NCBI GenBank assembly: GCA_016699425.1
Contig: CP064975.1
Coordinates: 130,979-194,978, forward strand
Length of the DNA stretch: 64,000 nucleotides
Source: Candidatus Moraniibacteriota bacterium
Lineage (GTDB): Bacteria; Patescibacteriota; Minisyncoccia; Moranbacterales; UBA1568
Direction of reading: 5' to 3'
Of this stretch, positions 3,352 to 51,045 are shown piece after piece. The notes below the pieces were generated by a model. The model saw only the letters and a program-made list of their open reading frames with translations, made no database searches and had not been told where the DNA came from. The position numbers and the translations under genes were made by a program. Numbering within the stretch: position 1 is the first letter of the stretch; the number at the start of each line of letters is the position of its first letter.

Positions 3352-3380
3352 TTGACAAGACTGTGTTCTCGCTGTACAAT
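3352..3380 (+). promoter_or_regulatory. Consensus sigma70 promoter (TTGACA-17 bp-TACAAT) upstream of nusA
   Basis: TTGACA at 3352-3357, a 17-bp spacer, then TACAAT at 3375-3380, about 100 bp upstream of the nusA ATG. Confidence 0.7.
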
Positions 3381-3479
3381 AGGCGTGTAAGTTGGTGAGG
3401 GAGTGGAAGTTCGCGGAAGCGGGCTTTTTTTGTCGGAAATCCCTTTTTGTTCAGTAAATAATTGGTGTAAACCAGAAAT

Positions 3480-4823
3480 ATGGCTAAGAAGAAAGTAGTA
3501 GAAGCGAGTGAGTCAGAAAGCCTCTCGGGCCGGCTCGGCGAATTCGGTAGTGCGGTGATGCAGATCGCCGAAGAAAAGAATCTCCCGCGTGAAAAAGTGT
3601 TTGAAATCGTCGAGGCGGCGCTCGCGGCGGCCTACAAGAAGGACTACGGCAAGAAAGGCCAAGTCATCAAAGCGAAGTTTGATGAAGTGACGAAGTCGGC
3701 GGATTTCTTCCTCGTGAAGGAAGTCGTAGATGAGACCTTGCGGGACTTCACCGTACCAGAAGAGACAGAAGAAGGTGTACCAGAGCAGGGAGGTACTCGT
3801 CCGGAGCTGGTTATCGAGACAAGCGAGACCGACGAGGAGCGACTGCCGCGCTTCAATGCTGAGCGCGATCTGACGCTGGACGAGGCGAAGCTCATCAAGC
3901 AGGATGCCGTTATCGGCGACAGCATCGAAATCCCGCTCGAAAGTCATGAAGACTTCGGCCGGGTCGCCGCGCAGACGGCCAAGCAGGTCATCATCCAGCG
4001 GATCCGTGAGGCAGAGCGCGAAACGATGTTCACTGAATACAAGGAGAAGGAAGGTCAGGCGGTGAATGGTATCGTCCAGCGCATCGAAGGCCGCAATGTC
4101 TTTGTCGATCTCGGTAAGTCCACCGGTATTCTCTTTCCGTCGGAGCAGATCCCGGGGGAGAACTATCGCATGGGTCAGCATCTGAAAGTCTTCCTCACCC
4201 GTGTCGAATCCGATCCGAAGGGGCCAGGATTGATCCTGTCGCGCGCCCATCCCGAGATGGTCCGCCACCTCTTCACACTCGAAGTGCCAGAAATCGCCAC
4301 CGGAACGGTCGAGATCAAAGCGATCGCCCGTGAGGCGGGGAGCCGCACCAAGATCGCGGTTTTGGCCAATGAGGATGGTGTCGATCCGATCGGTTCTTGT
4401 GTCGGCCAGAAGGGGACACGTGTCCAGACCGTCATCGATGAACTCGGCGGAGAGAAAGTCGATATCATCGAATGGAACGAGGATGTGCAGAAATTCATCA
4501 GCGCGGCGCTCTCACCGGCGAAAGTGCTGTCGGTTGAGCTGCGTGAGGCGGAGCAGCAGGCGATCGTCACGGTCCCAGCGGACCAGTTGTCGCTCGCGAT
4601 CGGCAAGCGCGGGCAGAACGTCCGACTGGCGGCCAAGCTCACCGGCTGGCGCATCGATGTAAAGAGTCCGGAGGAAGAGGAAGTCTCCGGGGCAGAGGTG
4701 GAGACTGAAACAGAGGCACTAGCTGAGAATGAGTCCATCACTGAAACCGCACCGGAAGCAACCGAAGTCACCCCGATCTCGGCCGAAGCTTCTCCGGAAG
4801 CTGTTGCAGAGGAGAAAGAATAA
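3480..4823 (+). CDS. nusA: Transcription termination/antitermination factor NusA
   Basis: N-terminal NusA domain, an S1 domain and tandem KH domains (VDPIGSCVGQKGTRVQTVIDELGGEKVDII) are present. The acidic C-terminal tail is typical. Confidence 0.9.
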   Translation: MAKKKVVEASESESLSGRLGEFGSAVMQIAEEKNLPREKVFEIVEAALAAAYKKDYGKKGQVIKAKFDEVTKSADFFLVKEVVDETLRDFTVPEETEEGVPEQGGTRPELVIETSETDEERLPRFNAERDLTLDEAKLIKQDAVIGDSIEIPLESHEDFGRVAAQTAKQVIIQRIREAERETMFTEYKEKEGQAVNGIVQRIEGRNVFVDLGKSTGILFPSEQIPGENYRMGQHLKVFLTRVESDPKGPGLILSRAHPEMVRHLFTLEVPEIATGTVEIKAIAREAGSRTKIAVLANEDGVDPIGSCVGQKGTRVQTVIDELGGEKVDIIEWNEDVQKFISAALSPAKVLSVELREAEQQAIVTVPADQLSLAIGKRGQNVRLAAKLTGWRIDVKSPEEEEVSGAEVETETEALAENESITETAPEATEVTPISAEASPEAVAEEKE

Positions 4824-8165: not shown

Positions 8166-8274
8166 TATTCTTTTGTAAAAAATTTTTAGAAGACTCCTGC
8201 TCCCTGCCTGCCGGTAGGCAGGTATCCATTGAGCTACAGGGACGGTTCGAGCGGGGCAATCAAATATCCACAGG
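8166..8274 (-). pseudogene. Degenerate partial copy of the tRNA-Arg(TCT) 5' half (acceptor/D-arm/anticodon arm) interrupted by a family hairpin
   Basis: Minus-strand reading GTCCCTGTAGCTCAATGGATA-[CCTGCCTACCGGCAGGCAGG]-GAGCAGGAGTCTTCTAA parallels tRNA-Arg GCCCCGATAGCTTAATGGATAAAGCAGGACTCTTCTAA. There is no T-arm or 3' acceptor strand. Confidence 0.5.
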
Positions 8275-8887: not shown

Positions 8888-9080
8888 GATCTCCTCGAAG
8901 GAGTTGATGGGGAGGGTGTGGCCAATGGGCCGATGAGAGCGGACGCTCGCACTTCGCGGGCCCAAGCCGCGCGCTGGCGTTCAGGGTACTGCGGAGCGAA
9001 TGACAGGGATCACCTCCTCTCTGGTAGGAACTATAAAGCTATGGTACCGGGAACACCGAATAGCTGTCAAATGGCGATCT

Positions 9081-25875: not shown

Positions 25876-27117
25876 TCAATTTTCCGCGCGGTATTTTGTG
25901 ATGAGATCAGCGTAGAGCCGGGCGCTCGGGCGGATGGTGCGTTTCTGGGTGATGCGGTCGACATGGACGAGGCCAAATTTCAACCAATAGCCCTTGTCCC
26001 ATTCGAAATTGTCGAGGAGCGACCAATAGAAGTATCCACGGACATCGACACCGTCATGGATCGCACGCTCCATTGCAGTCAGCGCGGCGGGGATGAACTT
26101 CTGGCGCAGTTCATCGCTTGCATCAGCGATACCATTTTCTGTCACATAGATCGGCTTGCCATATGACTTCAATTCGACGAGGGCGTGGTAGAGCGACTCT
26201 GGATAGTATTCCCAGCCGAAGTCGGTCTGGATTTTGTTTTCATTTTGGTCGAACCAGCCGTCGATGCGGTGGTGATTGTAGTGATTGAGCCCGATGAAAT
26301 CTTGCTCAGCGTCAATCTTGTTGAGGAACCAATGATTCCAAAGCTGATCAGCAACTTTCTTGAGCAGGCGGTTCCACATCGTACTGCCTGCTGCTTCGAA
26401 CCAGATATTATGTTTGGCGATACCGACTTCGGCGTGTGGGAAGTGGTTCTTGATGGTTCGGTAGGCGAGCCGGTGGGCACGGATCAGGTTGCGGAGGACA
26501 GCGAAATACAAAATTGGATTTCTTCGTTGCGGAGGCCAAGCGCCTTTCAGATACCCATGTGAGGCGACGACATCGGGCTCATTGAGCGTGACCCAATACC
26601 GTACGTCATTACCGAAAGCCAAAACCATTTTTTCAACGAAATATTCGAAGTAACATGGAAAATTTTTTGCGGCAATTCCACCCTCTTTGGAGAGCCAGAG
26701 CGGGAGTGTCCAATGCCAAAGGGTGACGAAGGGCTCGATACCTCGGGCGCGGAGAGCCTGAATCATTTGTCGGTAATGTTCGATGGCGGCTTCATCAAAT
26801 TTCCCCATTTCTGGTTCAATACGCGACCATTCGATGGAAAAACGATAAGCACTGAGGTTGAGTGATTTCAGAATGTCGAAATCCTCCCTGTACCGATTCC
26901 AGTGATCGCAGGCGGTGCCGGAGATATAGTTGGCCGGATCGGTCGCTTCAGACTCGAATTTTTTCCAATGCGGATTCCATCGGAAAGACGCCTCTGACTC
27001 GCGAGCCAGTCGGTTGGCATTCTGTTTCTCCCACTCGCTCCAGTCATTGTGCTGGCCGCCTTCGACTTGATGCGCTGCAGTCGCAGCACCCCAGAGAAAG
27101 CCTTTTGGAAACGGCAT
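25876..27117 (-). CDS. Beta-glucosidase, glycoside hydrolase family 1
   Basis: GH1 signatures: FLWGAATAAHQVEG N-terminus, the acid/base TLNEP motif and the nucleophile YVTENG motif. Confidence 0.9.
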   Translation of the reverse strand: MPFPKGFLWGAATAAHQVEGGQHNDWSEWEKQNANRLARESEASFRWNPHWKKFESEATDPANYISGTACDHWNRYREDFDILKSLNLSAYRFSIEWSRIEPEMGKFDEAAIEHYRQMIQALRARGIEPFVTLWHWTLPLWLSKEGGIAAKNFPCYFEYFVEKMVLAFGNDVRYWVTLNEPDVVASHGYLKGAWPPQRRNPILYFAVLRNLIRAHRLAYRTIKNHFPHAEVGIAKHNIWFEAAGSTMWNRLLKKVADQLWNHWFLNKIDAEQDFIGLNHYNHHRIDGWFDQNENKIQTDFGWEYYPESLYHALVELKSYGKPIYVTENGIADASDELRQKFIPAALTAMERAIHDGVDVRGYFYWSLLDNFEWDKGYWLKFGLVHVDRITQKRTIRPSARLYADLITKYRAEN

Positions 27118-27186
27118 AGGAAGGGTTGCTTTGGAGGATTATTGCTGCTATCATACCACGTCTGTCTGCACCTTTTGACGTATACT

Positions 27187-28911
27187 ATGAGTATGCAAGC
27201 AACTGTGTCGAAAAGCGTTTTCACGTTCCCAAATCCGAAAACGATTGTGCCGAGGGAACGGCGCATACAACGTGCACTCGAAATGATCCCGGGTACGCTC
27301 ACTTGGGGTACGCTCATCGGAGTGATTGTGTTGTCCTTCTTTGCGCCAGTGTATGCCGCCGTGTTCATCATGGTCTTTGATACGTACTGGATCTATCGGG
27401 CGATCTATATCTCCATCTTTTCTCTCCAAGCACAATGGAATATCGCTGAGGGGAAACGGATCGACTGGCGGGAACGCTACGAGGAATCGGTGCATCCGGT
27501 AGCATATGTGGAGAAATTGAAAGCACGGATCAGGTCACTCCGGACTGAGATGAAGGCGTCGCATGGTATCGGCGAATGGAAGAAACGGCGTGGGCTCCGT
27601 CAGGCGATAGGCCGAACGAAGCGCATCCTCCGTGAGACCGAGCGGCTCATTCCGCTCGAGCCAGTCATCATGGATTGGCATGACGTGATCCACGTCGTGC
27701 TCCTCCCGACCGCGGGGGAGCCAGTCGAGGTGATCGAGCCAGCGATCGAGTCGCTCACCAAGTCACGCTTCCCGTTGGACCAGATCATCGTCCTCCTGGC
27801 GACCGAAGAGCGCGAAGACCCGGCGACTCGATTGCCGAAAGTTGAAGCGCTGCGGGCGAAATTCGGGCACTTGTTCAAAGACTTCCTCGTCACGACGCAT
27901 ATCGTGGAAACCGGCGAGATGAAGTGCAAGGCGTCCAATGCGACGTTTGCGGCAAAGGAATTGATGCAGTATCTCGACGGAAAGGGGATCGATTATAAGC
28001 GGGTGGTGTTTTCTAACTTCGACTGTGATTCAGTCATCCATCCCGAGTACTTCGCGGCCCTGACCTATCACTATACGACCAGCCCCAATCGGCTGCGTCG
28101 CGCGTATCAGCCGCTTCCTATGTACCACAACAATCTCTGGGATACGAACGCGTTCGTCCGGGTCGTCGTGACGGGGTCATCGTTCTGGCATCTGTATCAG
28201 TCGACGCGGCGCGAGATGGTGACATTTTCCTCGCACTCGGAGCCGTTTGATACGCTGGTGAAGGTCGGATTTTGGCCGGTCAACATGATTAGTGAGGACT
28301 CAGTCATTTATTGGAAATGCCTCGCCTATTTCCATGGTGACTATGAGGTACAGCCGATCCATTTGCCCGTTTCGCTCGACGCCGTGCTCGCGCCGACGTA
28401 TTGGAAGACGATCGTGAATCAGTACAAACAGAAACGACGCTGGGCTTATGGGATCGAAAATTTCCCGGTGACGATGCGCGCGATCTGGCCGGACGCCGGG
28501 ATTCGCACTAGGACCAAGCTCCGCATCATGTTTGAAATGCTCGAGGGCCACTACTCCTGGGCGACGACTTCATTCCTTCTAACCTTCCTCGGCTGGTTGC
28601 CGCTGTTCCTCGGTGGGGGCATCTTCAAAGAAAGCGTCCTCGCCCACAATCTCCCATTTTTCACGCGCACGCTCATGACACTCGGCATGTCGGGGCTGCT
28701 CGTCTCGATCCCGATGTCACTTCTGACACTACCACCGCGGCCCAAACGCTATCACTGGTCACGCAATCTCCTCATGTTTTTCCAGTGGTTCTTGGTGCCG
28801 ATCGTGGCTTTCCTCTCGGCGATCCCGGCGATTGATTCGCAGACCCGCATCCTCACCAAGCGCTACTTCGGTGAATTCTGGGTGACCGAAAAGATGCGGA
28901 AACAAGGGTAA
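27187..28911 (+). CDS. Processive family-2 glycosyltransferase (cellulose/chitin-synthase-like, polytopic)
   Basis: Multiple TM helices flank a cytoplasmic GT-A domain with D, DxD and QKRRW (QxxRW) motifs. The Met at 27187 is chosen because the ORF-track start at 27049 overlaps the GH1 gene. Confidence 0.75.
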   Translation: MSMQATVSKSVFTFPNPKTIVPRERRIQRALEMIPGTLTWGTLIGVIVLSFFAPVYAAVFIMVFDTYWIYRAIYISIFSLQAQWNIAEGKRIDWRERYEESVHPVAYVEKLKARIRSLRTEMKASHGIGEWKKRRGLRQAIGRTKRILRETERLIPLEPVIMDWHDVIHVVLLPTAGEPVEVIEPAIESLTKSRFPLDQIIVLLATEEREDPATRLPKVEALRAKFGHLFKDFLVTTHIVETGEMKCKASNATFAAKELMQYLDGKGIDYKRVVFSNFDCDSVIHPEYFAALTYHYTTSPNRLRRAYQPLPMYHNNLWDTNAFVRVVVTGSSFWHLYQSTRREMVTFSSHSEPFDTLVKVGFWPVNMISEDSVIYWKCLAYFHGDYEVQPIHLPVSLDAVLAPTYWKTIVNQYKQKRRWAYGIENFPVTMRAIWPDAGIRTRTKLRIMFEMLEGHYSWATTSFLLTFLGWLPLFLGGGIFKESVLAHNLPFFTRTLMTLGMSGLLVSIPMSLLTLPPRPKRYHWSRNLLMFFQWFLVPIVAFLSAIPAIDSQTRILTKRYFGEFWVTEKMRKQG

Positions 28912-28998
28912 ATCTGACCCTTGCGAGAATGTAGAAAACGTGCTACGATATAGTGTCGTCAATTTTGGCGTCGTGAAGTTCCTTGAGGGGGTGGAAAA

Positions 28999-29295
28999 AT
29001 GGACGAAAGGGATCAAGCCGAACTCGAAGAGTATCGGCGGCAAGAACGAGGAGGTCGCGTGCTCGCACTGGTCATCCTCGCGGCAATGGTGACATTGGTT
29101 GGCGGCTGCACCATCGCCGCATACAAGGCTGATGCCTTGTACTCGATTGGCACGGGCTTTGGGCTCGACGCCGCGAAGATGGTGCGGTACTTTTCCGCGC
29201 CGAGGCAGCTGCCTCCAGACAAACCGAGCGCTACCCCTGGCAAGTGGGAGCACGGTGGGGGAGTACCCCGTGCGGCTAAGGGCACTCGCATCTGA
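28999..29295 (+). CDS. Small membrane protein (98 aa)
   Basis: SD GAGGGGGTGG upstream of the ATG. Acidic N-terminus followed by a TM helix (VLALVILAAMVTLVGG). Confidence 0.45.
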   Translation: MDERDQAELEEYRRQERGGRVLALVILAAMVTLVGGCTIAAYKADALYSIGTGFGLDAAKMVRYFSAPRQLPPDKPSATPGKWEHGGGVPRAAKGTRI

Positions 29296-29388
29296 GTCGC
29301 CTCACCGGGAGAGAGTGGCCAGGAAAGAAAGAAGCAGCGTATCAGTCCAAGACTGGCACGCTGTTTTCAATTCCTTGAATTTGATTAT

Positions 29389-29421
29389 TCCAAGTGGATC
29401 CGTTCTTCGACGGTCCGGAGA
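29389..29421. repeat. Displaced, synonymously re-coded copy of the recG 3' end (direct repeat of 30506-30538)
   Basis: 31/33 nt identical to the true recG terminus. Read on the minus strand it still encodes ...TVEERIHLE-stop, using GAA/TAA where recG has GAG/TAG. Confidence 0.7.
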
Positions 29422-29426
29422 AAGAA

Positions 29427-30449
29427 TCAGATCGGGTAGCTGTTGATCACTTTGAGAAACCGCTCCTCGGTCTCGGGAGTGATGGCATCAAGGAATTTAT
29501 TCATATCGTTATCGAGTCCCGTGTCTGCTACATAATGCTCGCGGGCGTGTTTCAAATGCGTAGCAGTAAACTGTTCATCGGCAACGAAACCGAAATAGTT
29601 TTTCAATTGAGACATTCTTTCGACGATTTCATCGGCCTGGAGAATATAATTTCGTTTGCCCGCTATGGCTTCCGGATCGAGCGCCTGTTTTATTTCAGTT
29701 GACATCTGTCCGGAGAATTTTCTTACGGCGTGACCCTTCTCGTGCGCTTCAATGATATTCTTTTGTCTGGGTGTAAGGGGCATGTTCTCCCGTGTCGAAG
29801 CGTCGGAAAATACGACACCTGAATGAATAAGTTCATCTTTGCTTGTTTGAGCATCGATTCTGTGTTGAGATACCCCCAATGCTTTTTCTGTTTTCCCATA
29901 TTCGCTCGCCTTGCCCACGCCTGTCGCCTGGAATCTATCCCGTACGCGCGCTGAAAAATCTTGAACCTGCTGTTTCTGGAAAGAGAGAAACTGGTCCGCT
30001 TTATCTAGCGGCCCGGGTTCCTCGTCGGGAAACGAGTCTGCATGGGTCGCGAAAGTACCTTCCAGCTTCATCTGGGTTGCAGGGTGGAGAAGCCGTTCGT
30101 GCAACAAGAGTGTCCAATCGCCGGGATAATTCGCCTCTGCTTCAACGATCTTTGCTTCCACTTCCAGTATCCGCTTCTGGGTTATCGTTTGGGCAGGTGA
30201 ATTTGCGACGCTTCCCTCTAGTCCTAGTGTGGTGCGGGCAGTTGTGAGAGCGGCCTGAGTTTCTTCATAAGTAACTTTCGTGGCATCAAGTCCCTTTTTG
30301 AGCATCTCGATTTTCTGAGTTCTCGCGCCCAGTACTGCTGGGTCATCGACGACGGAGGTGAGTGGTTTTTGCTCGACTGCTTCCGGTGGGGCCTGCTCTT
30401 CGCTTGGAGATGGTATCTTTTCTACGGTTCCCTTTCCTTCAAAGTCCAT
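29427..30449 (-). CDS. Hypothetical protein with an HExxH (HEKGH) zinc-metallopeptidase-like motif, carried on a ~1.1-kb insertion
   Basis: 340-aa ORF with IIEAHEKGHAV. It lies between recG and the displaced copy of the recG 3' end. Confidence 0.55.
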   Translation of the reverse strand: MDFEGKGTVEKIPSPSEEQAPPEAVEQKPLTSVVDDPAVLGARTQKIEMLKKGLDATKVTYEETQAALTTARTTLGLEGSVANSPAQTITQKRILEVEAKIVEAEANYPGDWTLLLHERLLHPATQMKLEGTFATHADSFPDEEPGPLDKADQFLSFQKQQVQDFSARVRDRFQATGVGKASEYGKTEKALGVSQHRIDAQTSKDELIHSGVVFSDASTRENMPLTPRQKNIIEAHEKGHAVRKFSGQMSTEIKQALDPEAIAGKRNYILQADEIVERMSQLKNYFGFVADEQFTATHLKHAREHYVADTGLDNDMNKFLDAITPETEERFLKVINSYPI

Positions 30450-30502
30450 ACGGTGCTGTCTTTTACCTTATTGTAGTGCTTTGGTGGGGATATCTTCCTA
30501 TT

Positions 30503-32590
30503 CTACTCCAAGTGGATCCGTTCTTCGAAGGTCTGGAGGGCCCGGCGGAGAAGGGGATGACTCGCGAGTGTCGGGTCGGCGGCGAGGACGGCAGCAGCTT
30601 TTTCGCGAGCGATTTGGATGAGCTTCACATTGGACAGGTGCTCCATGGCGATGTCGGGGAGGCCGGACTGGCGCGTGCCCAGGAAGGCACCGGGACCGCG
30701 CAGTTTCAAATCAATCTCAGCGAGTTCAAAACCACTCGTGGTTTCTTCCAGTGCTTGCAGTCTCGCACTCTCAGGACTTTTGCCGTCGCTCGGAAAGAGA
30801 AAACAGTAGCTCTGCTCGCTCCCACGCCCGACGCGGCCGCGGAACTGGTGGAGCTGGGACAGGCCGAAGCGCTCGGCGCCCTCGATGAGCATCACCGCCG
30901 CATTCGGGATATCGATGCCCACCTCGACGACGGCGGTCGCGACGAGGACGTCGAGTTTTCCGTTCTTGAAAGCCTGCATGACGGCCTCTTTTTCTTTCGC
31001 CTTGAGTCGGCCGTGAACGAGTCCGAGCGAACGATCAGGGAAAATATCTTTAGCGAGGCGTTCGTGTTCGGATGTCGCGGCCTTCACCTCTTCCATCGCT
31101 TTGCTTGCTTCGACCAAGGGGAGGATGACGAAGGCCTGCCGGCCCTTCTGGATTTCCTCTTCGATGAAGGCGTAGACTTTTTCCCGGGCGGTCTCGCTCG
31201 CGGCGACACGAGTGATGATGGGCTTCCTGTCCCGAGGCATCTCATCGAGGAGAGAGAGGTCGAGATTGCCGAAGAGCGTGAGGGCGAGCGTACGCGGGAT
31301 GGGTGTGGCGGTCATGGTGAGGAAGTGCGGGATGGTCGACTCTGAACCATCTTCGCTCGCGAAGGCTTGTTCTTGGAGCCGGGCGCGTTGGGCGACACCA
31401 AAGCGATGCTGTTCATCGACGACGATGAGGGCGAGCGACTGGAAGCGAACGGCGTCCTCGAGGATGGCGTGGGTGCCGATGACGATATCCGGTATCCCGG
31501 CCTCGATCGCTTTGATGAGCGACCGGCGACTGATGGTCTCGCCCGAGAGGGTCGAAGTACTGCCGGTGAGGAGGGCGACGTTTTTTCCGAGGGGCGCAAA
31601 GAGCCGTTCAAAGGTCTGGGCGTGCTGTGTGGCCAGGACTTCGGTCGGAGCGAGGAGCGCGGATTGGTATCCGTTTTGGACAGTCGCGTACATTGCGGTC
31701 GCGGCGACGACAGTCTTGCCACTGCCGACATCGCCATTTAGGAGTCGGTTCATGGGGTGCGATTCGCGGAGGTCGGCGAGGATTTCAGCGATGGCTTTTT
31801 CCTGGGCAGCAGTCAGGGCGAAGCCGAGTGTCGTGAGGAAGGCTTGGTGGTCAGCGGGGGAGAGAGGAATATTTACAGCCTGACCCTCTGCGGCGGTGGC
31901 GCGGACGGCGAGGCTTTTCAGCTGGAGAAAAAACATCTCCTCGAAGGCGAAGCGTTTTTTGGCGAGGAGGACTTGCTTTTCGGTCTTGGGGAAATGAATA
32001 TAGGCGAGCGCAGTGCGGAGGTCGGGGAGGTGGAGGTCGGTGATGATCGCGGTATCGAGCGGATCGGGGATGGCTTTCAGTTTTCCGAAAATGGTCGCAA
32101 TCTGCCAGCGTAGGAATTTCGAGGTGAGGCCCGTCGTCTCGGGGTAGACAGGCACGAGGCGCCCTGTGTGCGTCGCGGCCCGCTCAGCTCGCTCAAAGGC
32201 CGGTGATTGTATGACGAGGCTGTCCCGGTCGCGGACGACTTTACCGGAGAGCCGGACTGTCTGCCCCTCTTTCAAGACCGTCTGTACGAAGCGCTGATTG
32301 AACCATATGGCGCGAAGCGTGCCGGTGGCATCTTCGATCGTCGCTTCGGTCAGGAGGAGTTTCTTTTTCCAGGTGCGCTCGGCCGAGAGGGTGGTGACGG
32401 TGCCTTCGACGGTGACGCGGGTGTCGGGCATCAGGTCAGCGATCGGCGTCGTGACCGAGTAATCCTCGTAACGGGCCGGGAAATGATAGAACAAGTCGCG
32501 CACCGTTTCGATACCGAGGCGCTTCAGGGCGTACCAGTGGGCCTTCTTGATCGTGGGGGAGGTGTCGAGTCGGGTCGTGAAGTCAAGCAT
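30503..32590 (-). CDS. recG: ATP-dependent DNA helicase RecG
   Basis: Wedge domain plus SF2 helicase with Walker A (GDVGSGKT), DEQH box, motif VI (QLHQFRGRVGRG) and an intact C-terminus. Confidence 0.95.
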   Translation of the reverse strand: MLDFTTRLDTSPTIKKAHWYALKRLGIETVRDLFYHFPARYEDYSVTTPIADLMPDTRVTVEGTVTTLSAERTWKKKLLLTEATIEDATGTLRAIWFNQRFVQTVLKEGQTVRLSGKVVRDRDSLVIQSPAFERAERAATHTGRLVPVYPETTGLTSKFLRWQIATIFGKLKAIPDPLDTAIITDLHLPDLRTALAYIHFPKTEKQVLLAKKRFAFEEMFFLQLKSLAVRATAAEGQAVNIPLSPADHQAFLTTLGFALTAAQEKAIAEILADLRESHPMNRLLNGDVGSGKTVVAATAMYATVQNGYQSALLAPTEVLATQHAQTFERLFAPLGKNVALLTGSTSTLSGETISRRSLIKAIEAGIPDIVIGTHAILEDAVRFQSLALIVVDEQHRFGVAQRARLQEQAFASEDGSESTIPHFLTMTATPIPRTLALTLFGNLDLSLLDEMPRDRKPIITRVAASETAREKVYAFIEEEIQKGRQAFVILPLVEASKAMEEVKAATSEHERLAKDIFPDRSLGLVHGRLKAKEKEAVMQAFKNGKLDVLVATAVVEVGIDIPNAAVMLIEGAERFGLSQLHQFRGRVGRGSEQSYCFLFPSDGKSPESARLQALEETTSGFELAEIDLKLRGPGAFLGTRQSGLPDIAMEHLSNVKLIQIAREKAAAVLAADPTLASHPLLRRALQTFEERIHLE

Positions 32591-32723
32591 AGTCGGGAGT
32601 GTTCATGGCTCCAGTATAGCGTATGAAAAAAAAGAACCCTGAAACCGCGGATGCGGCCAGGGCCTGAAGTCTGCGCTGTACGACGCAGAGGGGAGGGAGG
32701 GAAGCGCGGTTGGAATGCTGCCG

Positions 32724-33185
32724 CTACCGTGATGCGCGGCGTGAAACGTGCTCTTTGTTCCGGCGATTGATCGCCGGGAGTGAAGTGGTTGTCGACGTCG
32801 AGACGTCGGGGATGTTGAACTCAAGTTCGTTCATGAGACCGTCGAAGTGTGGCTTTGTGGGCGCTTCGGTCATGGATGCCTGGCGGATGGTAACCTGTGG
32901 GCCATCGAATGTGAGTGAATACCTCGGTTTGAGTTTTCCACCCGGACTGGAAAGATTGAACTTTTCAACCAGTTGATTGAGCCTCTGTTGCTGCTCCAGA
33001 GAGAGTACGTCCTCGAACGTTACAATGCACAAGCGTGCATTGAACCTGTCAAAAGCAGTTGAATCTGTAACCGTTGGTAACGTCATTTTCTTTCTTGCCC
33101 CCATAAAAGTATTGAGGCGCATTCCCTGTTCCCTTATATTTTTAAACAACGTCCCTATGGTACTGGATAAATGAGAGTTCGTCAA
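32724..33185 (-). CDS. Hypothetical protein (153 aa)
   Basis: Moderately plausible ORF. No motif recognised. Confidence 0.4.
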   Translation of the reverse strand: MTNSHLSSTIGTLFKNIREQGMRLNTFMGARKKMTLPTVTDSTAFDRFNARLCIVTFEDVLSLEQQQRLNQLVEKFNLSSPGGKLKPRYSLTFDGPQVTIRQASMTEAPTKPHFDGLMNELEFNIPDVSTSTTTSLPAINRRNKEHVSRRASR

Positions 33186-33257
33186 GGGTAAATCGAGTAA
33201 AAAATTCCCGCCGCAGAGGGTGTTGCATCTCTGGGCGGGGGAGTTCCTGTGTCGGCG

Positions 33258-33653
33258 TTATTGCTTCAACAGAGGCGTGGCGCTGACATATATCGGTCGG
33301 TTATCGTCAGTTTCTTCGACGATGGGACATTGACCGTGACCAAGAAACGGTAGGTCTCCGTCTGGGGATTCGTAGCCGAAATGTTTGGCTACTGCCTTGA
33401 AGTCCTCTTGTCCTAGAGGAAGTTTCTTTAGTGGTCTTAGGAGGACGACAGCACCATGGAAATCAGGTGAAAACGTCGGCCCTTTCTTCTGGAGGACATA
33501 GGCGCCGAGCGAACTGAGCACGATGCCTTGTTCAGTTGATTCGAGGTCTCGATCAAAGTGGAGGTGGAGCGCCAAGCATCCGGTGCTCCGATGCTGAAGG
33601 CCAGCATGGCGCACAGCGGGGAGTCTGGAATACATGGAGGAGTCTCCTTTCAT
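33258..33653 (-). CDS. Hypothetical protein (about 125-131 aa)
   Basis: ORF with internal candidate starts. No motif recognised. Confidence 0.4.
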   Translation of the reverse strand: MKGDSSMYSRLPAVRHAGLQHRSTGCLALHLHFDRDLESTEQGIVLSSLGAYVLQKKGPTFSPDFHGAVVLLRPLKKLPLGQEDFKAVAKHFGYESPDGDLPFLGHGQCPIVEETDDNRPIYVSATPLLKQ

Positions 33654-33767
33654 CTGTGGGGTTGAAAATATTCTTGTTTTTAACGAGCGCCATCACTATA
33701 GCCGAGAAAAGGCGCTTCGTCAAGGTTTCGGTTTGAATCCCGCTCGGCGGGGTGTTAGCATAGGTGC

Positions 33768-34598
33768 ATGCCAAAAGCGTATTGGAACGGAAGCTATTGC
33801 GATGAGTCAGCCATCCATATCAGCCCGCGAGACCTCGGCCTCTTGCGCGGGTATGCGGTGTTTGACGTGATGCCGGTGTACCGGGGCCGCCCCTTTCATA
33901 CTGATCGGCACTACGCGCGGCTCGCTCGTTCGGCCGAGACGCTCCGTCTCCAGTTGCCGGTGGATGCCGCCGCATTTACCGTGATCGCGACTGAATTGTC
34001 CCAACAAGCGGGTTTGACCGAAGCGACCATCCGCACCGTCCTCTCGGGTGGCTCGAGTGAAAATGGTTTTCGGCCGGCGTCGGGCCGAGAGAATTTTTTC
34101 ATGCTCGTCGAATCAGTCCATGCGCCGCACCCATCGACCTATCAAGACGGCGTGCGGCTCATCACACTCGAATACGGACGCTCCTTGCCGCAGGTGAAAT
34201 TCGCCAATCATGCAATAGCGATCCAGGATCTGGGCAGACGAGATGCAGCTGGTGCATACGAGACGTTGTATGTGAACGGAGGAATGGTCTCGGAGTGTTC
34301 GCAGAGCAATCTCTTTTGGGTTCGGGATGGTCAGATCGGCACGACTTGGGATGATGTGCTCTGGGGGATCACACAGGGATTGGTGATGGAGTTGGCGGCA
34401 GCGCGGGGGAACGCTGTCAGGAAAACCTCTATCACCCTCGAGGAATTATTTCAAGCCGATGAAATTTTCATTACGGGTAGTAGTAAAGCGCTCGTCCCAG
34501 TCGTCGAGATCGACGGTCGGAAAATTGGGAACGGTACGGTCGGATCGATTACACGAGAACTGATGGTGGCGTATCGGGAGTATTGCGTGAAGTATTGA
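33768..34598 (+). CDS. Class IV aminotransferase (branched-chain or D-amino-acid aminotransferase family)
   Basis: 276 aa with fold-type IV hallmarks (RGYAVFD, ETLYVNGG, EIFITGS). Confidence 0.75.
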   Translation: MPKAYWNGSYCDESAIHISPRDLGLLRGYAVFDVMPVYRGRPFHTDRHYARLARSAETLRLQLPVDAAAFTVIATELSQQAGLTEATIRTVLSGGSSENGFRPASGRENFFMLVESVHAPHPSTYQDGVRLITLEYGRSLPQVKFANHAIAIQDLGRRDAAGAYETLYVNGGMVSECSQSNLFWVRDGQIGTTWDDVLWGITQGLVMELAAARGNAVRKTSITLEELFQADEIFITGSSKALVPVVEIDGRKIGNGTVGSITRELMVAYREYCVKY

Positions 34599-34602
34599 GA
34601 AT

Positions 34603-34648
34603 GTGTCCCCGCGTGGAGTCCCTGTCTGCCGACAGGCAGGGAACCACG
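34603..34648 (-). pseudogene. Duplicate of the last ~25 nt of tRNA-Arg(CCG) with a family hairpin inserted in its T-loop
   Basis: GTGTCCCCGCGTGGAGTC at 34603-34620 is an exact copy of 34663-34680. It is followed by CCTGTCTGCCGACAGGCAGG and then AACCACG. Confidence 0.6.
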
Positions 34649-34664
34649 ATACGATACTGCTTGG

Positions 34665-34736
34665 TGTCCCCGCGTGGAGTCGAACCACGGTCTCTTCCTT
34701 CGGAGGGAAGTGTCCTATCCGTTGAACTACGGGGAC
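34665..34736 (-). tRNA. tRNA-Arg (anticodon CCG)
   Basis: Acceptor GTCCCCG/CGGGGAC, anticodon stem CTTCC/GGAAG, loop CTCCGAA, T-arm with TTCGACT loop. Confidence 0.8.
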
Positions 34737-34809
34737 GGAAAAATTGAAATATATCTACTTGGTCTGACTGGAATCCCAGCCCGTAGAAGCTACGCTTCAA
34801 GCGTTGCTG

Positions 34810-34890
34810 GCGGGGAACCACGATTTCATCCTTCGGAGGTATGTGCCTCCCGCCCGAACGACGGACATCGTTCAGTCGGGCGGGTATCCA
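34810..34890 (-). pseudogene. Degenerate pseudo-copy of the tRNA-Arg(CCG) T-arm/anticodon region with a long imperfect hairpin
   Basis: GAACCACGATTTCATCCTTCGGAGG parallels tRNA GAACCACGGTCTCTTCCTTCGGAGGG. It continues into the palindrome CCCGCCCGA...TCGGGCGGG. Confidence 0.45.
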
Positions 34891-35069
34891 TTATACGACG
34901 AGCGCGAAGTACGACAGAGTATTTTCTTAAACAGAAACACAAAAACCCTATCACACATCGTGACCGAAAGGCAAACTGATTGTAACACAGAGGGATGTTT
35001 TTTCGATTGACAGCTCTGGACAGATGGGAGATAGTTGTCACGTGACATATTTCAAGGAAGGAGAAAATC

Positions 35070-35264
35070 ATGCGTGTGTTGGAGCGTCCGCGTGGTCGTC
35101 CGTGCGGTATTCTCGAGTTACTCTCTGGTGGTGTAGGAAAATCGACGCCAGAGTTACTCGAACAGGGAGTCCGTGTCCTAGTCCCTCCGCGAGAGAATAA
35201 TACAGGAGGGAGACTGAGTCAGTCCTTTGATCCCGATCGATGGGAGCAGGTAGCCGCTCAGTAA
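35070..35264 (+). CDS. Small hypothetical protein (64 aa)
   Basis: Strong SD AAGGAAGGAG 7 nt upstream of the ATG. Basic product. Confidence 0.35.
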   Translation: MRVLERPRGRPCGILELLSGGVGKSTPELLEQGVRVLVPPRENNTGGRLSQSFDPDRWEQVAAQ

Positions 35265-35366
35265 TAAGCAGTATCGGTGGCCTAGAGGCGCTTGAGGGAT
35301 TCCCTTTGGCGCCTCTCTCTATATCCATACATCCCGTCGAGCACAGTCCTGTGGCGCGTGTTTGAG

Positions 35367-36569
35367 CTAATGTTCGGGGACAAGGGTGGACCGGTCTTGG
35401 TAGAGGTAGAGATAGAGGTAAAAGGGGAGAAGTACTGCTACGAATAGAATGGCGATGCACAGAAATCCCAGTCGATAGGAGAGATGCTGAATCGCGAAAC
35501 CGAGTCCGAAACTGGCCACGGCGGTGACGGCCATGTCAATCTGTCCGGGTATGGAGAGGAGGGTTGCTTTGAACCGACTGTCCTTGATGATTTCGACGAG
35601 AAAGCTGGTACCGACCTGGCTCAGTCCCCATTGGAAGGCATTGATAGTGAGGAAGAGCGTCACGACAACCCAAGGGGAAGCGATGATCCCCAGGAGGAGG
35701 AGTTGGAACGCAAAGATGATCAACAGAAAAGCTTGGAAGTTGTAAATATCTCTGAAAGCCGTATGCAGTTTGCCGCTGTAGGCGAGCATCAGTGAAGCGA
35801 GTGCGCGGCCGATACCAAAGAAAACGCCGAACCAGATCACGGGGACCTCGAGTAATGATTGGTATGGGGCGCGGAATACCCCGACCGATACGAGAGTCCC
35901 AGTGATGATTCCCATGAAAATGGCGTGTCGAAAGTATCGCAAACGGAAACCCTCTCGGAGGACATCTCGAAAGTTTGTCACGCCCATTTCCTCGACATGT
36001 TCGGGGGTGACGGGTGGTTTGATCAGGGAGAAAGAAATGATCAAACCGATCACATCCAAGATGAGTCCGACCAAGAAAGGGAGCTTGTAGCTGAATTCGA
36101 CCAAGAAGGGGACGAGCACCATCAGGACGACGGGTACGGCAAATCCGAGCGAACTCGCTTTCCCCATCACTTTTGAATATTCCTTTTCTCGTCCCAGGGC
36201 ACGGAGCGTTTCGTGCATGAAGGCGCTGCCGGTGCCACTATGAAACGCCTGACTGAGACTGAGGAAAACTCCGCCCAAGATGAGGAGGTATACATGGTTG
36301 GCGATGAGGAGGAAAAAAGAGGAGAGCACCATAAAGACTCGGGCGACGATGAGGGTTTCCTTGTGTCCGAGCTTGTCTGCGAAATATCCACTAGGTACTT
36401 GAAAGAGGAAACCAGCAATGCTTCCGATGAGCAGTATGGTGCCGATCCATTGAGGGGTGACTTCGGGGATAGTGAGATAATAGGCACCCAAGATTGCCAC
36501 GAAAACACGCTTATTCGTGATGAGGATAAGCGTGTACTTCCAAATGTTACTCTGGAGTCCGGATCGCAT
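35367..36569 (-). CDS. MFS-family transporter
   Basis: About 12 TM helices. The start is placed at the Met at 36569 because the longer ORF (to 36626) would overlap tRNA-Arg(GCG). Confidence 0.7.
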   Translation of the reverse strand: MRSGLQSNIWKYTLILITNKRVFVAILGAYYLTIPEVTPQWIGTILLIGSIAGFLFQVPSGYFADKLGHKETLIVARVFMVLSSFFLLIANHVYLLILGGVFLSLSQAFHSGTGSAFMHETLRALGREKEYSKVMGKASSLGFAVPVVLMVLVPFLVEFSYKLPFLVGLILDVIGLIISFSLIKPPVTPEHVEEMGVTNFRDVLREGFRLRYFRHAIFMGIITGTLVSVGVFRAPYQSLLEVPVIWFGVFFGIGRALASLMLAYSGKLHTAFRDIYNFQAFLLIIFAFQLLLLGIIASPWVVVTLFLTINAFQWGLSQVGTSFLVEIIKDSRFKATLLSIPGQIDMAVTAVASFGLGFAIQHLSYRLGFLCIAILFVAVLLPFYLYLYLYQDRSTLVPEH

Positions 36570-36584
36570 GATACAAATAAATGG

Positions 36585-36657
36585 TGCGCTCGGCAGGAAT
36601 CGAACCTGCGACCCTCTGGACCGCAACCAGATGCTCTATCCACTGAGCTACGAGCGC
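36585..36657 (-). tRNA. tRNA-Arg (anticodon GCG); CCA encoded (to 36582)
   Basis: Acceptor GCGCTCG/CGAGCGC, D-arm GCTC-AGTGGATA-GAGC, anticodon stem TCTGG/CCAGA, loop TTGCGGT, T-arm GCAGG-TTCGATT-CCTGC. Confidence 0.75.
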
Positions 36658-36747
36658 AAAAAAAGAGTCGAGAACGAAGAATCTTGAATCTGGGTTATCG
36701 TCTCTCTTTCGAAATTCTAGATTCTACACTCTAGACCCTTTCGAGAA

Positions 36748-37227
36748 CTAAATATGCAGCATTTTCTCCAGGGTGTCAATGATGGTCGGTTCGTGCTTCT
36801 CCTCCGGGACATAATCAAGCAAGAGGTTTCGGAGCTCTTCGGCCGGGACATCACCGATCGGGATATGGATGTAGGGTGAGATGATGCCGTTGGAGTGGAG
36901 GCTGAGCACGCCCTCGAGCGGTGACTCTTCATAGATCCAAAATGAATGAATGTCTTCGAAGTCGTAGAGTGTCTTGCCGCCGAGTATGCCCTTGCTCGTG
37001 ACGGCGAACTCGAACTCGCGCGGGTCACGGGTGAGGAAGAGATAGCCGACGATACCGATCAAGAAGAACGTGATCGCCATGATCGGGCTATTGGTGAAGA
37101 TCGCGTAGGCGATGATGAGCGCGAGGAGAACAGTCGAAACCATCAAACCGCGCGGGTTGGGCCGGACATGGATGTGTTCCGGCGCGCGCCACGACAAGAG
37201 GGGAGTACCGGCGAGCATTGGTTCCAT
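36748..37227 (-). CDS. Hypothetical membrane protein (2 TM plus soluble C-terminal domain)
   Basis: 159-aa ORF with TM helices near residues 30-75. No motif recognised. Confidence 0.5.
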   Translation of the reverse strand: MEPMLAGTPLLSWRAPEHIHVRPNPRGLMVSTVLLALIIAYAIFTNSPIMAITFFLIGIVGYLFLTRDPREFEFAVTSKGILGGKTLYDFEDIHSFWIYEESPLEGVLSLHSNGIISPYIHIPIGDVPAEELRNLLLDYVPEEKHEPTIIDTLEKMLHI

Positions 37228-37332
37228 AGAGTATGTGAATATTTCTTTTTATTCACTATACCATGATTTGTCCTGTCCGCGATCCCGTCAGAGAGCGGGG
37301 AACCTTCGGTACCTTGCCCTATCCAATCAAAG

Positions 37333-46227: not shown

Positions 46228-48267
46228 ATGCTGAACTCAAATCTCGAGAAGAACGTCGAAAAGGGGTACCAATCACTCGGACGGTCAATACTCCTCGTGG
46301 GGAGGCAGAAGGTTCGGTTTTCTCTGGCGCTCCTTAGCATCATGTTCGTGGGCGGGGCGCTCGCGATGCTCATCTGGAACGTCTCAAGTACCTTCAACAA
46401 TGACTCAATCCAAGGCTCGCTCGCTTTGTTGCCGGGGGTGGAGTTGAATACCACGCAGGCAGCCGCGAATTCGACCTTGCTTTTCAATCCGGCCAGTGTG
46501 TCTGTCGCTGGTGATCAGCAGTTCTCCCTGGATGCGCGGATCAATCCTGGTACCAACGCAGTGAGTGCGGTCGAGCTGCATGTCACCTATGATCAAACAA
46601 AATTCCGACTGGATAGCATCACGGCTTCATCCCCGTTCACTCTCGAGCTGGCTGCGGCGTCAATCAACAATACAAATGGTACGGCCTCTATCGCGTTGGC
46701 GGTTCCTTTGACAAGCCCGTCGGTCACGACGACATCGACGATCGCGACGTTCTCGTTTCATTCCCTGGCGTCCGTGACAGGTTCTTCGATTGCGTTTACC
46801 GCAGCGTCGATCGCTTCTGCTGATGGCGAATCTGGCAATGCGATCATTACTCGTACACCAGCGACCGTTACGGTCGATGGCACAGCGCCCACCATCACCA
46901 CCATCACCTCGTCCCAAGCCAACGGAACATACACGACTGGTGCCGTCATCCCGATCAATCTCACCTTCTCCGAAGCAGCGACCTCGACTGGCAATGTCAC
47001 GGTCACACTGGAAACTGGTACGACCGATCGCACCTGCACGTTCACTGTGTCGAATTCGACGACGGGGAGCTGTAACTACACGGTCCAAGCCGGAGATACC
47101 ACAACTGATCTCAACGTGAATACGGTCTCTGGTGTCATCCGGGACCAGGCTGGGAATGCGATGACCAACTTCGTTCCGACGACGAACCTGGCTGCTAACA
47201 AGGCACTGGTGATTGATACGACTGCTCCGACCAATCAGCAAACTGTCTTTTCGACGAGTGTTTCGGTAGCGGGCGGAGCAAGTGTCACGATCGTTTCGTC
47301 AGGAGACTCCACGAACAATGTCTGGTTTGCCCCATCGGGTACCACAAACTTCGTAGCGAGCGCGACTATGACCAAAGCCGCGAATGGCTCATCGACCACC
47401 ATCCTCGCCCCAGCTACAGGTGGAAGCTACAAGCTGTTTGTGATCGATGCGGCCGGCAATGTGTCTACAGCCTCAACAGCAACCTTGACGGTTGATAGCG
47501 TGCCGCCCACCATCACCACCATCACCTCGTCCCAAGCCAACGGAACATACACGACTGGTGCCGTCATCCCGATCAATCTCACCTTCTCCGAAGCAGCGAC
47601 CTCGACTGGCAATGTCACGGTCACACTGGAAACTGGTACGACCGATCGCACCTGCACGTTCACCGTATCGAATTCGACGACGGGGAGCTGTAACTACACG
47701 GTCCAAGCCGGAGATACCACAACTGATCTCAACGTGAATACGGTCTCTGGTGTCATCCGGGACCAGGCTGGGAATGCGATGACCAACTTCGTTCCGACGA
47801 CGAACCTGGCTGCTAACAAGGCACTGGTGATTGATACGACAACGCCGGTGATCTCTGTGGTATCGGCGATCCCGAGCATTACCCGGGACTCTACACCGTA
47901 CTATGTGTTCAATGCGACAAAGCCCGGAACGATCACGTATGGGGGCGGCTGTTCATCGAGTACGACTGCCGCCGTATCGGGCAGCAACACCGTCACTTTC
48001 AACACACTGAGTCCAGGTACGTACGCGAGCTGCACACTCTTCATCACGGATGCATCGAGCAATTCGAGTAACACGCTCAGTATCGCTTCGTTCGTTGTGA
48101 CATACGCGAGTGATCTCAATTTGGACCGGACGGTAAATGTTATCGACTTCGGTGTTCTGAAGACAAACTACGGCACCACCAATGCTGCGGGCGATATCAA
48201 TAGCGATGGCCAGGTCAATGTGCTGGACTTCGGCGTCCTGCATGGTCAGTATGGGAGCAGTGTGTAA
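46228..48267 (+). CDS. Scaffoldin-like surface protein: TM anchor, cohesin-like module, two identical 112-aa Ig-like repeat modules, further beta-rich modules and a C-terminal dockerin
   Basis: 679 aa. The cohesin-like module is residues ~85-215. An exact protein repeat is encoded by a 336-bp DNA tandem repeat. The C-terminal dockerin reads DLNLDRTVNVIDFGVLKTNYG / DINSDGQVNVLDFGVLHGQYG, two DxNxDxxVNxxD Ca-loop repeats. Confidence 0.7.
   Translation: MLNSNLEKNVEKGYQSLGRSILLVGRQKVRFSLALLSIMFVGGALAMLIWNVSSTFNNDSIQGSLALLPGVELNTTQAAANSTLLFNPASVSVAGDQQFSLDARINPGTNAVSAVELHVTYDQTKFRLDSITASSPFTLELAAASINNTNGTASIALAVPLTSPSVTTTSTIATFSFHSLASVTGSSIAFTAASIASADGESGNAIITRTPATVTVDGTAPTITTITSSQANGTYTTGAVIPINLTFSEAATSTGNVTVTLETGTTDRTCTFTVSNSTTGSCNYTVQAGDTTTDLNVNTVSGVIRDQAGNAMTNFVPTTNLAANKALVIDTTAPTNQQTVFSTSVSVAGGASVTIVSSGDSTNNVWFAPSGTTNFVASATMTKAANGSSTTILAPATGGSYKLFVIDAAGNVSTASTATLTVDSVPPTITTITSSQANGTYTTGAVIPINLTFSEAATSTGNVTVTLETGTTDRTCTFTVSNSTTGSCNYTVQAGDTTTDLNVNTVSGVIRDQAGNAMTNFVPTTNLAANKALVIDTTTPVISVVSAIPSITRDSTPYYVFNATKPGTITYGGGCSSSTTAAVSGSNTVTFNTLSPGTYASCTLFITDASSNSSNTLSIASFVVTYASDLNLDRTVNVIDFGVLKTNYGTTNAAGDINSDGQVNVLDFGVLHGQYGSSV
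46887..47840 (+). repeat. Tandem direct repeat inside the scaffoldin gene: two 336-bp copies (46887-47222 and 47505-47840), >99% identical, period 618 bp
   Basis: The copies differ at only about two positions. Each encodes APTITTITSSQANGTYTTGAVIPINLTF...NLAANKALVIDTT. Confidence 0.85.
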
Positions 48268-50181: not shown

Positions 50182-51045
50182 ATGGATCTGATGAGTATTA
50201 CAAAGAGAGGAACGCGGTCTTCTTCTTCGCTCGCCCTACTCGTGTTTGTGCTGCCGATGTTTCTGTCTCTCACTTTGCCAGTTCATGCGGCCGCCGACAC
50301 GACTCTCTATTTCAATCCAGCGAGTGCTGCTCAGACAGTCGGAGATGACTTCAGCTTGGTCGCAACGATTAACCCAGGAGCGAACGCGGTCAGCGCTGTT
50401 GAGTTGCATGTGACCTTTGATCAGACCAAGCTCCGACTGGATAACATCACGGCTTCAGGGACTTTCTCACTGGAGCTTGCGGCTGCTGTAATCAATAATA
50501 CCGACGGCACTGCCTCAATCGCTCTTGCTGTCCCGCTCGCGAGTCCGTCGGTGACGACCACGTCTGCGGTGGCGACCTTTGCCTTCCATGCACTTGCAAA
50601 CGGGACGGATTCACCGGTGGCCTTCACGACTGCTTCTCTTGCTTCGGCAGATAGTGAGTCCGGCAATGCAATCTCGGTCCGGACATCGGCTTCGGTGACT
50701 ATCACAGGGGGTTCTTCATCGAGTAGCGATGATGATGGTGATGGCGGTGGACACAAGAAAAAGAAAAAGGTCTCCCCACGGAAAATCACGAATTCAGTAA
50801 AATCGGTTCATCGGGGGGGTACGTTGACCCAGCGCGGGAAAAAGTTTTCCAAGAATTCCCTCGTCGCGCTCTATTTCTCCAAGCCGAACGGGACGTACTA
50901 TCCGCCGATGATGGTGAAGACGAGCGGGAGTGGTGCATTTATGATCAAGTATCGGGTCACTAAGCCAGCGGGGAAATATAGCTGGTATGTCGTCGATACC
51001 AAGACTGGCAAAAAGAGTAAGGTTATGACATATACGGTCAAATAA
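50182..51045 (+). CDS. Secreted cohesin-like module protein (paralog 3) with an Asp/Gly/Lys-rich linker and a C-terminal beta domain
   Basis: Signal peptide, then a module 70-80% identical to the scaffoldin module (LYFNPASAAQTVGDDFSLVATINPGANAVSAVELHVTFDQTKLRLDNITAS...), then SSSSDDDGDGGGHKKKKK and a ~90-aa C-terminal domain. Confidence 0.65.
   Translation: MDLMSITKRGTRSSSSLALLVFVLPMFLSLTLPVHAAADTTLYFNPASAAQTVGDDFSLVATINPGANAVSAVELHVTFDQTKLRLDNITASGTFSLELAAAVINNTDGTASIALAVPLASPSVTTTSAVATFAFHALANGTDSPVAFTTASLASADSESGNAISVRTSASVTITGGSSSSSDDDGDGGGHKKKKKVSPRKITNSVKSVHRGGTLTQRGKKFSKNSLVALYFSKPNGTYYPPMMVKTSGSGAFMIKYRVTKPAGKYSWYVVDTKTGKKSKVMTYTVK

Follow-up and report, generated by a model that had tools for sequence, protein, structure and literature searches.

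A zincin-like gene inserted between recG and its terminator in a Moraniibacteriota genome and bracketed by a duplicated recG 3′ end

A 64,000-nucleotide (nt) stretch of contig CP064975.1 from Candidatus Moraniibacteriota bacterium (the window, to which the positions below refer unless another locus is named) carries recG on the minus strand, followed by a single gene for a 340-residue protein, here called X, and by a second copy of the recG 3′ end. Alignment with related genomes, whose contigs are given by locus identifiers (L-numbers), shows that the X unit is a real insertion and that the second copy is the old recG terminus. The duplicated tail looks like an ordinary recombination scar and not like a new kind of mobile element. 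The reading that we favour, at about even confidence, is that the unit entered by homology-anchored, integrase-independent recombination, through either homology-facilitated illegitimate recombination (HFIR) or a single crossover of a circular fragment.

The repeated recG terminus and the empty sites

The terminus of recG (30503-30538, 36 nt) recurs at 29385-29420 with 32 of 36 positions identical in stop-codon register, and a repeat search paired 29386-29420 with 30504-30538 (35 nt, 91% identity, spacing 1118). The exact 22-nt core TCCAAGTGGATCCGTTCTTCGA is present at just two sites in the window, 29389-29410 and 30507-30528, and the recG-tail duplication is the sole repeat of its kind in the 64 kb. 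Matches to the core were obtained in 0 of 100 dinucleotide-shuffled sequences, which rules out the chance similarity that had been set against the original prediction. An assembly artefact is ruled out as well, since an independent Logan assembly (L182, SRR11674038) is base-identical over the recG tail, X, copy 2 and hairpin, which excludes misassembly, and a variant sister strain (L081) has the same layout; both explanations of the repeat are thus refuted. The parts of the locus are listed below (aa, amino acids; ORF, open reading frame; TM, transmembrane).

30503..32590, minus strand: intact recG, 695 aa (Pfam RecG_wedge, DEAD, Helicase_C and RecG_dom3_C)
30503..30538, minus strand: copy 1, the final 11 codons and TAG of recG, terminus now in use (repeat comparison)
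30450..30502, minus strand: spacer of 53 nt from the recG stop to the X start (52 of 53 positions identical in L081)
29427..30449, minus strand: gene X, 340 aa, the sole ORF between the copies, with HEKGH
29421..29426, minus strand: junction TTCTTT, 6 nt, from the X stop codon TGA to copy 2 (read from the sequence)
29385..29420, minus strand: copy 2, displaced ancestral recG terminus LRTVEERIHLE-TAA, untranslated (position matches the empty sites L183 and L187)
29322..29363, minus strand: terminator-like hairpin (stem-loop 29335-29363) and U-rich tract, CUUCUUUCUUUCC (dG -22.2 kcal/mol, z -3.2)
28999..29295, plus strand: small ORF, 98 aa, one predicted TM helix, resident flank outside the insertion (ORF list; gene calls in L183-L191)
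27049..28911, plus strand: glycosyltransferase-2-like membrane protein, convergent with recG, conserved right-hand flank (weak Pfam Glyco_trans_2_3; synteny in 13 relatives)

On the minus strand, copy 1 reads CTC CAG ACC TTC GAA GAA CGG ATC CAC TTG GAG TAG and copy 2 (29420..29385) reads CTC CGG ACC GTC GAA GAA CGG ATC CAC TTG GAA TAA. It had been claimed that the last 33 nt of recG recur with two substitutions, both synonymous. The recurrence holds, but the coordinates were 1-4 nt off and there are four differences; the two in the 24 nt coding for EERIHLE-stop (GAG>GAA and TAG>TAA) are synonymous as claimed, whereas two more within the 33 nt are not (TTC>GTC, F>V; CAG>CGG, Q>R). In L081, copy 2 ends in IHLD-stop (E to D) and its frame differs from that of gene X. 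The change and frame in L081, taken with the non-synonymous differences, give no sign of selection on the coding capacity of copy 2, and the view that copy 2 was re-coded and still coding is, judged from these alignments, an over-reading of a neutral decay pattern. A read-through fusion of X with copy 2 was rejected, being in frame in the window alone and out of frame in L081. The arms of copy 2 diverge strongly between the window and L081, and the fold of the copy 2 region (dG -9.4 kcal/mol, z -0.45) is not attC-like. A dif- or Xer-like site was also rejected, as the cumulative GC skew has no switch here.

The C-terminus of RecG (...LQTFEERIHLE) is conserved in 12 relatives, and the end of the protein is unaltered in the window. 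Because the 53-nt spacer contains no hairpin (dG -2 kcal/mol, z +0.74) and no promoter or terminator match in the scan, X is probably co-transcribed with recG and ended by the former recG terminator; the hairpin at 29335-29363 was left unflagged by the consensus terminator scan. A search of the 474-nt flank and the unit against Rfam gave no match even at E <= 1, and a structured RNA in either was dropped, the z of about -4 on both strands being uninformative.

The closest recG relatives at the aa level (P0122, 93%; P0123, 93%; P0125, 89%; loci L183-L192) share with the window the order recG, small ORF, glycosyltransferase-like gene, GH1, but have no X. Both X and the duplicated recG tail are absent from 80 of 80 species-level recG loci, and no pseudogene remnants of X were detected in the species representatives or in the three closest relatives. 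In L183-L188, which belong to the relatives at 93%, ATTGAAAACAGCGTGCCAGTCTTGGACTGATACGCTG and a T-run lie 9-10 nt beyond the recG TAG. This hairpin is the one that stands in the window after copy 2 and not after copy 1; a different hairpin occupies the position in L189-L192. Since copy 2 and the recG stop of L183 and L187 are followed by the same hairpin, copy 2 is the displaced original terminus, and the ancestral layout was a recG tail and then the terminator, with the X unit now between them. Three elements of the original prediction are borne out here: a 1.1-kb insertion missing from relatives at 89-93% recG identity and from 80 species-level relatives; one end resident and the other the displaced original, the recG stop of L183 and L187 lying within 10 nt of the copy-2 hairpin; and the existence of empty sites among related recG loci (L183-L188), all of them in other strains or species. 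The prediction of one gene with an HEKGH motif between the copies was also confirmed (29427..30449, minus strand).

The slot that received X is a variable one. Throughout the clade, recG is convergent with the glycosyltransferase-like gene; the gap is 11-22 nt in L003, L006 and L007. Elsewhere it is occupied by other genes: L001 has a HAM1-like gene there, L004 and L010 have an ABC transporter, L012 has a regulator, and L009 and L013 have a small ORF. It is from these unrelated contents that the variability of the slot is deduced. In L012, perfect 38-nt palindromes (TATCACTATTTTATGACGACCGCACAATTATAGTGATA) at 8188-8225 and 8917-8954 flank the gene for a 197-aa regulator-like protein; they were dropped as insertion scars, being probably palindromic operator-like sites around the regulator. 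In the closest relatives of the window a gene of 95-105 aa occupies the position of the small membrane ORF (28999-29295), and this ORF and its counterparts in L183-L191 are hypervariable (44-67% nt identity, with flanks at 90-100%).

The base composition of X sets it apart: its G+C content at third codon positions (GC3) is 0.50, compared with 0.74 for recG and 0.71 for the glycosyltransferase-like gene, and it is below that of the adjacent recG in L082 and L083 also, so that X is compositionally foreign. This bears on the possibility that X has stood behind recG since the ancestor of the clade and has disappeared repeatedly, e.g. when the copies recombined; the duplication would then be an old in-situ one, kept similar by gene conversion. 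Such a history would account for the adjacency of recG and X in lineages whose recG C-terminal parts are only 61-67% identical; the direct repeats would permit precise deletion, and a possible decayed tail copy stands at the same offset after X in L082 (TTC..AATTCAC-TTTTGG). That tail match, however, is not above shuffles, in every genome X has a GC3 far below that of the genes beside it, other relatives have unrelated genes in the slot (HAM1-like gene, ABC transporter, regulator), and the 80 species representatives and three closest relatives lack X without pseudogene remnants. An ancestral X is therefore quite improbable.

Route of the insertion

The inserted unit would be 1,118 nt long and consist of the 53-nt leader, gene X, 6 nt and one copy of the recG tail. 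Its donor would be a Moraniibacteriota lineage with X already directly behind recG, whose recG would pair with the resident recG as a homologous anchor while an illegitimate joint formed at the far end, some 36-48 nt before the resident stop codon (HFIR). By an equivalent route, a re-circularised fragment could enter through one crossover inside the recG tail. The product would be in the order of intact recG, X, displaced resident tail and old terminator. Copy 2 would then be a scar without function, subject to neutral decay and able to promote the precise loss of X, and the unit could later be spread or removed by two-sided homologous recombination.

Candidate donors were found. Among the closest X homologues, those with 57% (L082) and 55% (L083) identity, from distant Moraniibacteriota, lie 24 and 48 nt after recG, respectively, and the C-terminal parts of these recG genes are 67% and 61% identical to that of the window. 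The adjacency of recG and X in L082 and L083 means that donors carrying recG-X exist, and with such donors homology-anchored insertion becomes the simplest route. In L081, X (86% identity) is likewise behind recG with the same spacer and a second tail copy, and X stands behind recG in four lineages. The recG nearest to that of L082 (L012, 79%) is without X, so that the distribution of X is patchy. No significant second tail copy was found in either L082 or L083, the candidate in L082 being not above shuffles. For HFIR, the upstream homologous anchor is thus present in plausible donors (L082 and L083), and the resident 3′ fragment is contiguous with the resident flank, copy 2 and the hairpin aligning with L183 and L187. 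The 1.1-kb unit contains no integrase or recombinase, no inverted ends and no attC-like fold. In the literature, HFIR-type displacement is represented by orphaned 3′ ends in type VI secretion system (T6SS) and Rhs loci (PMC5361080); with re-circularised DNA, a single crossover duplicated 109-950 bp of the homologous locus, and such duplications were far commoner in experiment than true HFIR (PMC3240628).

Recombination is pervasive in the lineage. Over about 26500-37300, identity to L001, L183 and L187 alternates between approximately 60 and 100% per 100-200 nt, a mosaic pointing to very frequent homologous recombination over short tracts in this Moraniibacteriota population. X itself is mosaic: it is approximately 99% identical to that of L081 over its first 650 nt and approximately 75% identical from about residue 215 to about 20 nt beyond copy 2; the 3′ part of X in L081 resembles L083. 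A donor-derived 3′ half of recG was considered as a test of HFIR and found uninformative, as the drop in identity to L001 at about nt 950 is part of the genome-wide mosaic. For the source of incoming DNA we infer uptake by natural transformation: com genes are conserved in the Candidate Phyla Radiation, and natural transformation was demonstrated in Saccharibacteria (PMC10633639).

Several points weigh against homology-anchored entry. Classical HFIR is rare and usually yields a deletion, not a duplication (PMC3240628), and competence was shown for Saccharibacteria, not for Moraniibacteriota (PMC10633639). Microhomology at the illegitimate joint is ambiguous, with a possible match of TTCTCCG. 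The right edge of the 22-nt core is exactly where the 99% block common to the window and L081 begins, as would also be expected of a site-specific crossover. Both window copies have ATC-CAC-TTG where the empty-site relatives have ATT-CAT-CTG, a pattern for which target duplication in situ or gene conversion is at least as good an account. Finally, direct repeats in both flanks were found at 6 of 54 distinct X loci (7 of 55 with the window) and at 3 of 190 control ORFs, which were size-matched and taken from recG loci (6/54 versus 3/190, Fisher p = 0.0045); this excess around X hints, as a matter of repeat counts, at something specific to the family.

The edge of the L081 block bears equally on the reading of the unit as a non-autonomous remnant of the cis-mobilisable element (CIME) type, in which the tail copies would be the attL and attR of a tyrosine or serine recombinase acting in trans or since lost. 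The bracketing direct repeats, one of which restores the end of an ORF, agree with this, the presence of X behind recG in four lineages could reflect site preference, a distant homologue (L088) adjoins a large serine recombinase, and integration at the 3′ end of a housekeeping gene has a precedent in ICESt1/3 in fda (PMC3234194). However, there is no recombinase in or beside the unit, whose flanks are recG and the small membrane ORF, L082 and L083 lack a significant second copy, the flanking repeats of other X members are unrelated and provide no common att site, the window and L081 are strongly different in the arms of copy 2, and the 64-kb window has one such repeat. We regard a remnant of this type as unlikely. 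The self-integrating element supplying a replacement terminus that was originally proposed is likewise unsupported: the unit has one ORF, no recombinase and no inverted ends, there is no significant second copy in L082 or L083 and no att core shared with other X loci, and the argument from synonymous changes fails.

Gene X and its homologues

No Pfam, PHROG, NCBIfam or PADLOC family was assigned to X, and domain searches revealed no recombinase, nuclease or transposase features; a defence function was dropped, PADLOC giving no match to X. AlphaFold models had a mean confidence (pLDDT) of 90.7 for full-length X and 93.4 for residues 104-340. A coiled-coil hairpin makes up the N-terminal part of X and is followed by a C-terminal zincin-like domain containing H236-E-K-G-H240 and E274. 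In 60 sequences, H236, E237, K238, H240, E274 and R278 are invariant. A structure search with the full-length model matched coiled coils solely, and neither Foldseek against the PDB nor a sequence search of the PDB gave a match. X can best be classed as a divergent gluzincin-like protein, a putative peptidase, that carries a coiled-coil hairpin at its N-terminus. The closest known proteins are the zincin (gluzincin) metallopeptidases, e.g. M13 PepO/neprilysin, PPEP and minigluzincins, with which X shares HExxH and a downstream third ligand (E274). In total, 218 homologues were found; those with a named organism all come from metagenome-assembled genomes of Patescibacteria, and all are annotated as "hypothetical protein". 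Weak matches (28-41% identity to the C-terminal ~70-130 residues of X, the HExxH part) were also obtained in ten viral contigs of IMG/VR (L172-L181), so that the HExxH-containing domain occurs in putative phages as well.

Distant members of the family lie in the same orientation downstream of genes for ruvB, arcC, dUTPase, Pth, HtpX, MreC, ClpB-like proteins (twice), GrpE, pyruvate kinase, TGT and others, and the distance behind these unrelated housekeeping genes is usually 2-150 nt. A link of X to DNA repair, suggested by recG and ruvB, was rejected since the other upstream neighbours are unrelated housekeeping genes; the homologue between ruvB and yebC-ruvC in L084 (2976-6093), a second Holliday-junction helicase neighbour, is probably coincidental.

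The repeats at other X loci are mutually unrelated, comprising terminator hairpins, AT-rich spacers, one gene fragment and some promoter-like intergenic motifs. In arrays, the same repeats flank neighbouring non-X genes (9 of 83), which makes them a property of the locus and not of X. A survey of 1.5 Mb yielded a clear duplicated 3′ end in just two cases. In L121, a 64-nt repeat with 95% identity (2458-2521 and 3673-3736) is made up of the 32 nt that close the upstream gene (1848-2489) and of its terminator hairpin; the repeat brackets one membrane-protein gene (2526-3620), after which come an X homologue and a third copy of the hairpin at 4684-4712. L121 is a true analogue of the window architecture, with an unrelated gene inserted, and speaks for homology-anchored entry.

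These contexts allow the X family to be pictured as a promoterless cassette that an undescribed mechanism directs to the region between stop codon and terminator, with variable target duplications of ~20-125 nt. Pointing this way are the repeat-flanked X loci (6/54, or 7/55 with the window, against 3/190 control ORFs), the usual position of X 2-150 nt behind unrelated housekeeping genes in the same orientation, and the allele states that both window copies share and that are missing from the empty sites. On the other side, array neighbours other than X are flanked by the same repeats (9/83), several of the repeats are simply terminators or intergenic motifs resembling promoters, nuclease and recombinase features are lacking in X, and the 1.5-Mb survey gave two clear 3′-end duplications only. 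We hold this improbable, and give slightly less credence still to the stronger form in which an integrase-less cassette has landed repeatedly between stop and terminator (recG, ruvB, arcC, clpB-like, grpE and others), duplicating 20-125 nt of target each time. If the cassette picture were true, the mechanism would have left a fresh footprint in the duplicated recG tail.

Some X loci have features of their own. In L113 (also L117 and L118), a 73-nt repeat present three times (359-431, 1747-1819 and 3402-3474) separates a Fic-domain gene, a sigma-70-like gene and an X homologue in a cassette-like array; its opposite strand encodes the recurring peptide GxVVEDVRTVFE. A related repeat is carried by L111 and L112, and a 125-nt version flanks X in L111. 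In L160, the X homologue lies between carbamate kinase and an ornithine carbamoyltransferase-like gene with a 50-nt AT-rich intergenic repeat three times (2809, 3888 and 4837); from the gene order this looks like an insertion inside an arginine-deiminase-type operon. In L096, the tRNA-Arg 3′ end GATTCCTGGTGAGGGCACA is found at 3555-3577 and 3710-3732, ~155 nt apart, and the repetitive extragenic palindromic (REP)-like sequence ACGAGGTCGAACCTCGT is scattered around the X homologue (3404, 3481, 3743 and 4769); tRNA-fragment att sites around other X genes were rejected, as the L096 repeat is a REP-like palindrome and no tRNA end. In L088 (2649-6876) and L091 (1296-2060), the X homologue adjoins defence-type ABC/AAA_21 ATPases (PADLOC mad3-, AriA-, PtuA- and GajA-like), with the large serine recombinase also beside it in L088 and a tRNA-Gly 200 nt before it in L091; both look like variable or defence-island contexts.

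Elsewhere in the window, a direct repeat of 300 nt (96%) is present at 46856-47155 and 47474-47773, 618 nt apart; a 33-nt repeat family has four copies (48130, 48211, 49965 and 50052); and a 53-nt repeat (87%) pairs 46577-46629 with 50405-50457.

Meaning and comparison with known systems

The locus provides a clean, datable case of accessory-gene gain in a streamlined Patescibacteria genome. X has slipped between a housekeeping gene and its terminator with the host gene unharmed, and transcription was probably borrowed. The case supports homologous and illegitimate recombination of taken-up DNA, over classical mobile elements, as a shaper of these genomes, and it flags a widespread, unannotated zincin-like family. 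That elements can integrate at the 3′ end of housekeeping ORFs is no new concept (ICESt1/ICESt3 in fda, PMC3234194), and the event in the window belongs to the known kinds of displaced 3′ ends and Campbell-type duplications; what is new is this instance, the series of empty, filled and donor sites in Patescibacteria and the unannotated family. The mechanism adds little beyond C-terminal displacement and Campbell-type scars unless the family-wide excess of repeats proves specific.

Insertion sequences and transposons differ from the unit in several respects, as it has no transposase domain and no terminal inverted repeats, and its duplication is at least 36 nt. With integron cassettes the unit shares a single, apparently promoterless ORF in the orientation of the upstream gene, and some X relatives stand in repeat-gene-repeat arrays, a further likeness. 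Unlike integron cassettes, it has no attC-like folded site, its repeats are locus-specific (gene tails and terminators), no IntI or attI was seen among the local ORFs inspected, and the upstream gene is recG.

Phage 21 and e14, in icd, are also elements that target the 3′ end of a protein-coding gene. ICESt1/ICESt3 in fda (PMC3234194) and cis-mobilisable remnants have in common with the window bracketing direct repeats of which one restores the end of the ORF. In contrast to them, the window unit is 1.1 kb, carries no integrase or excisionase and no conjugation or phage genes, and has no att core conserved at other X loci.

Campbell-type crossover as described at lacZ of E. coli (PMC3240628) likewise leaves foreign DNA between direct duplications without site-specific enzymes. 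The duplications there were 109-950 bp, whereas the homology here would be just ~36-48 nt, and the circular form is hypothetical. In the Rhs and V. cholerae T6SS effector-immunity modules, C-terminal displacement swaps a toxin domain; in the window both termini encode the same peptide with 36 nt displaced, the cargo is one zincin-like gene and not an effector-immunity pair, and the pathway is one that we infer. What HFIR C-terminal displacement in those modules (PMC5361080) shares with the window is the upstream anchor, the orphaned resident 3′ end and the lack of an integrase, and a further likeness is that its hosts are recombining, transformable populations.

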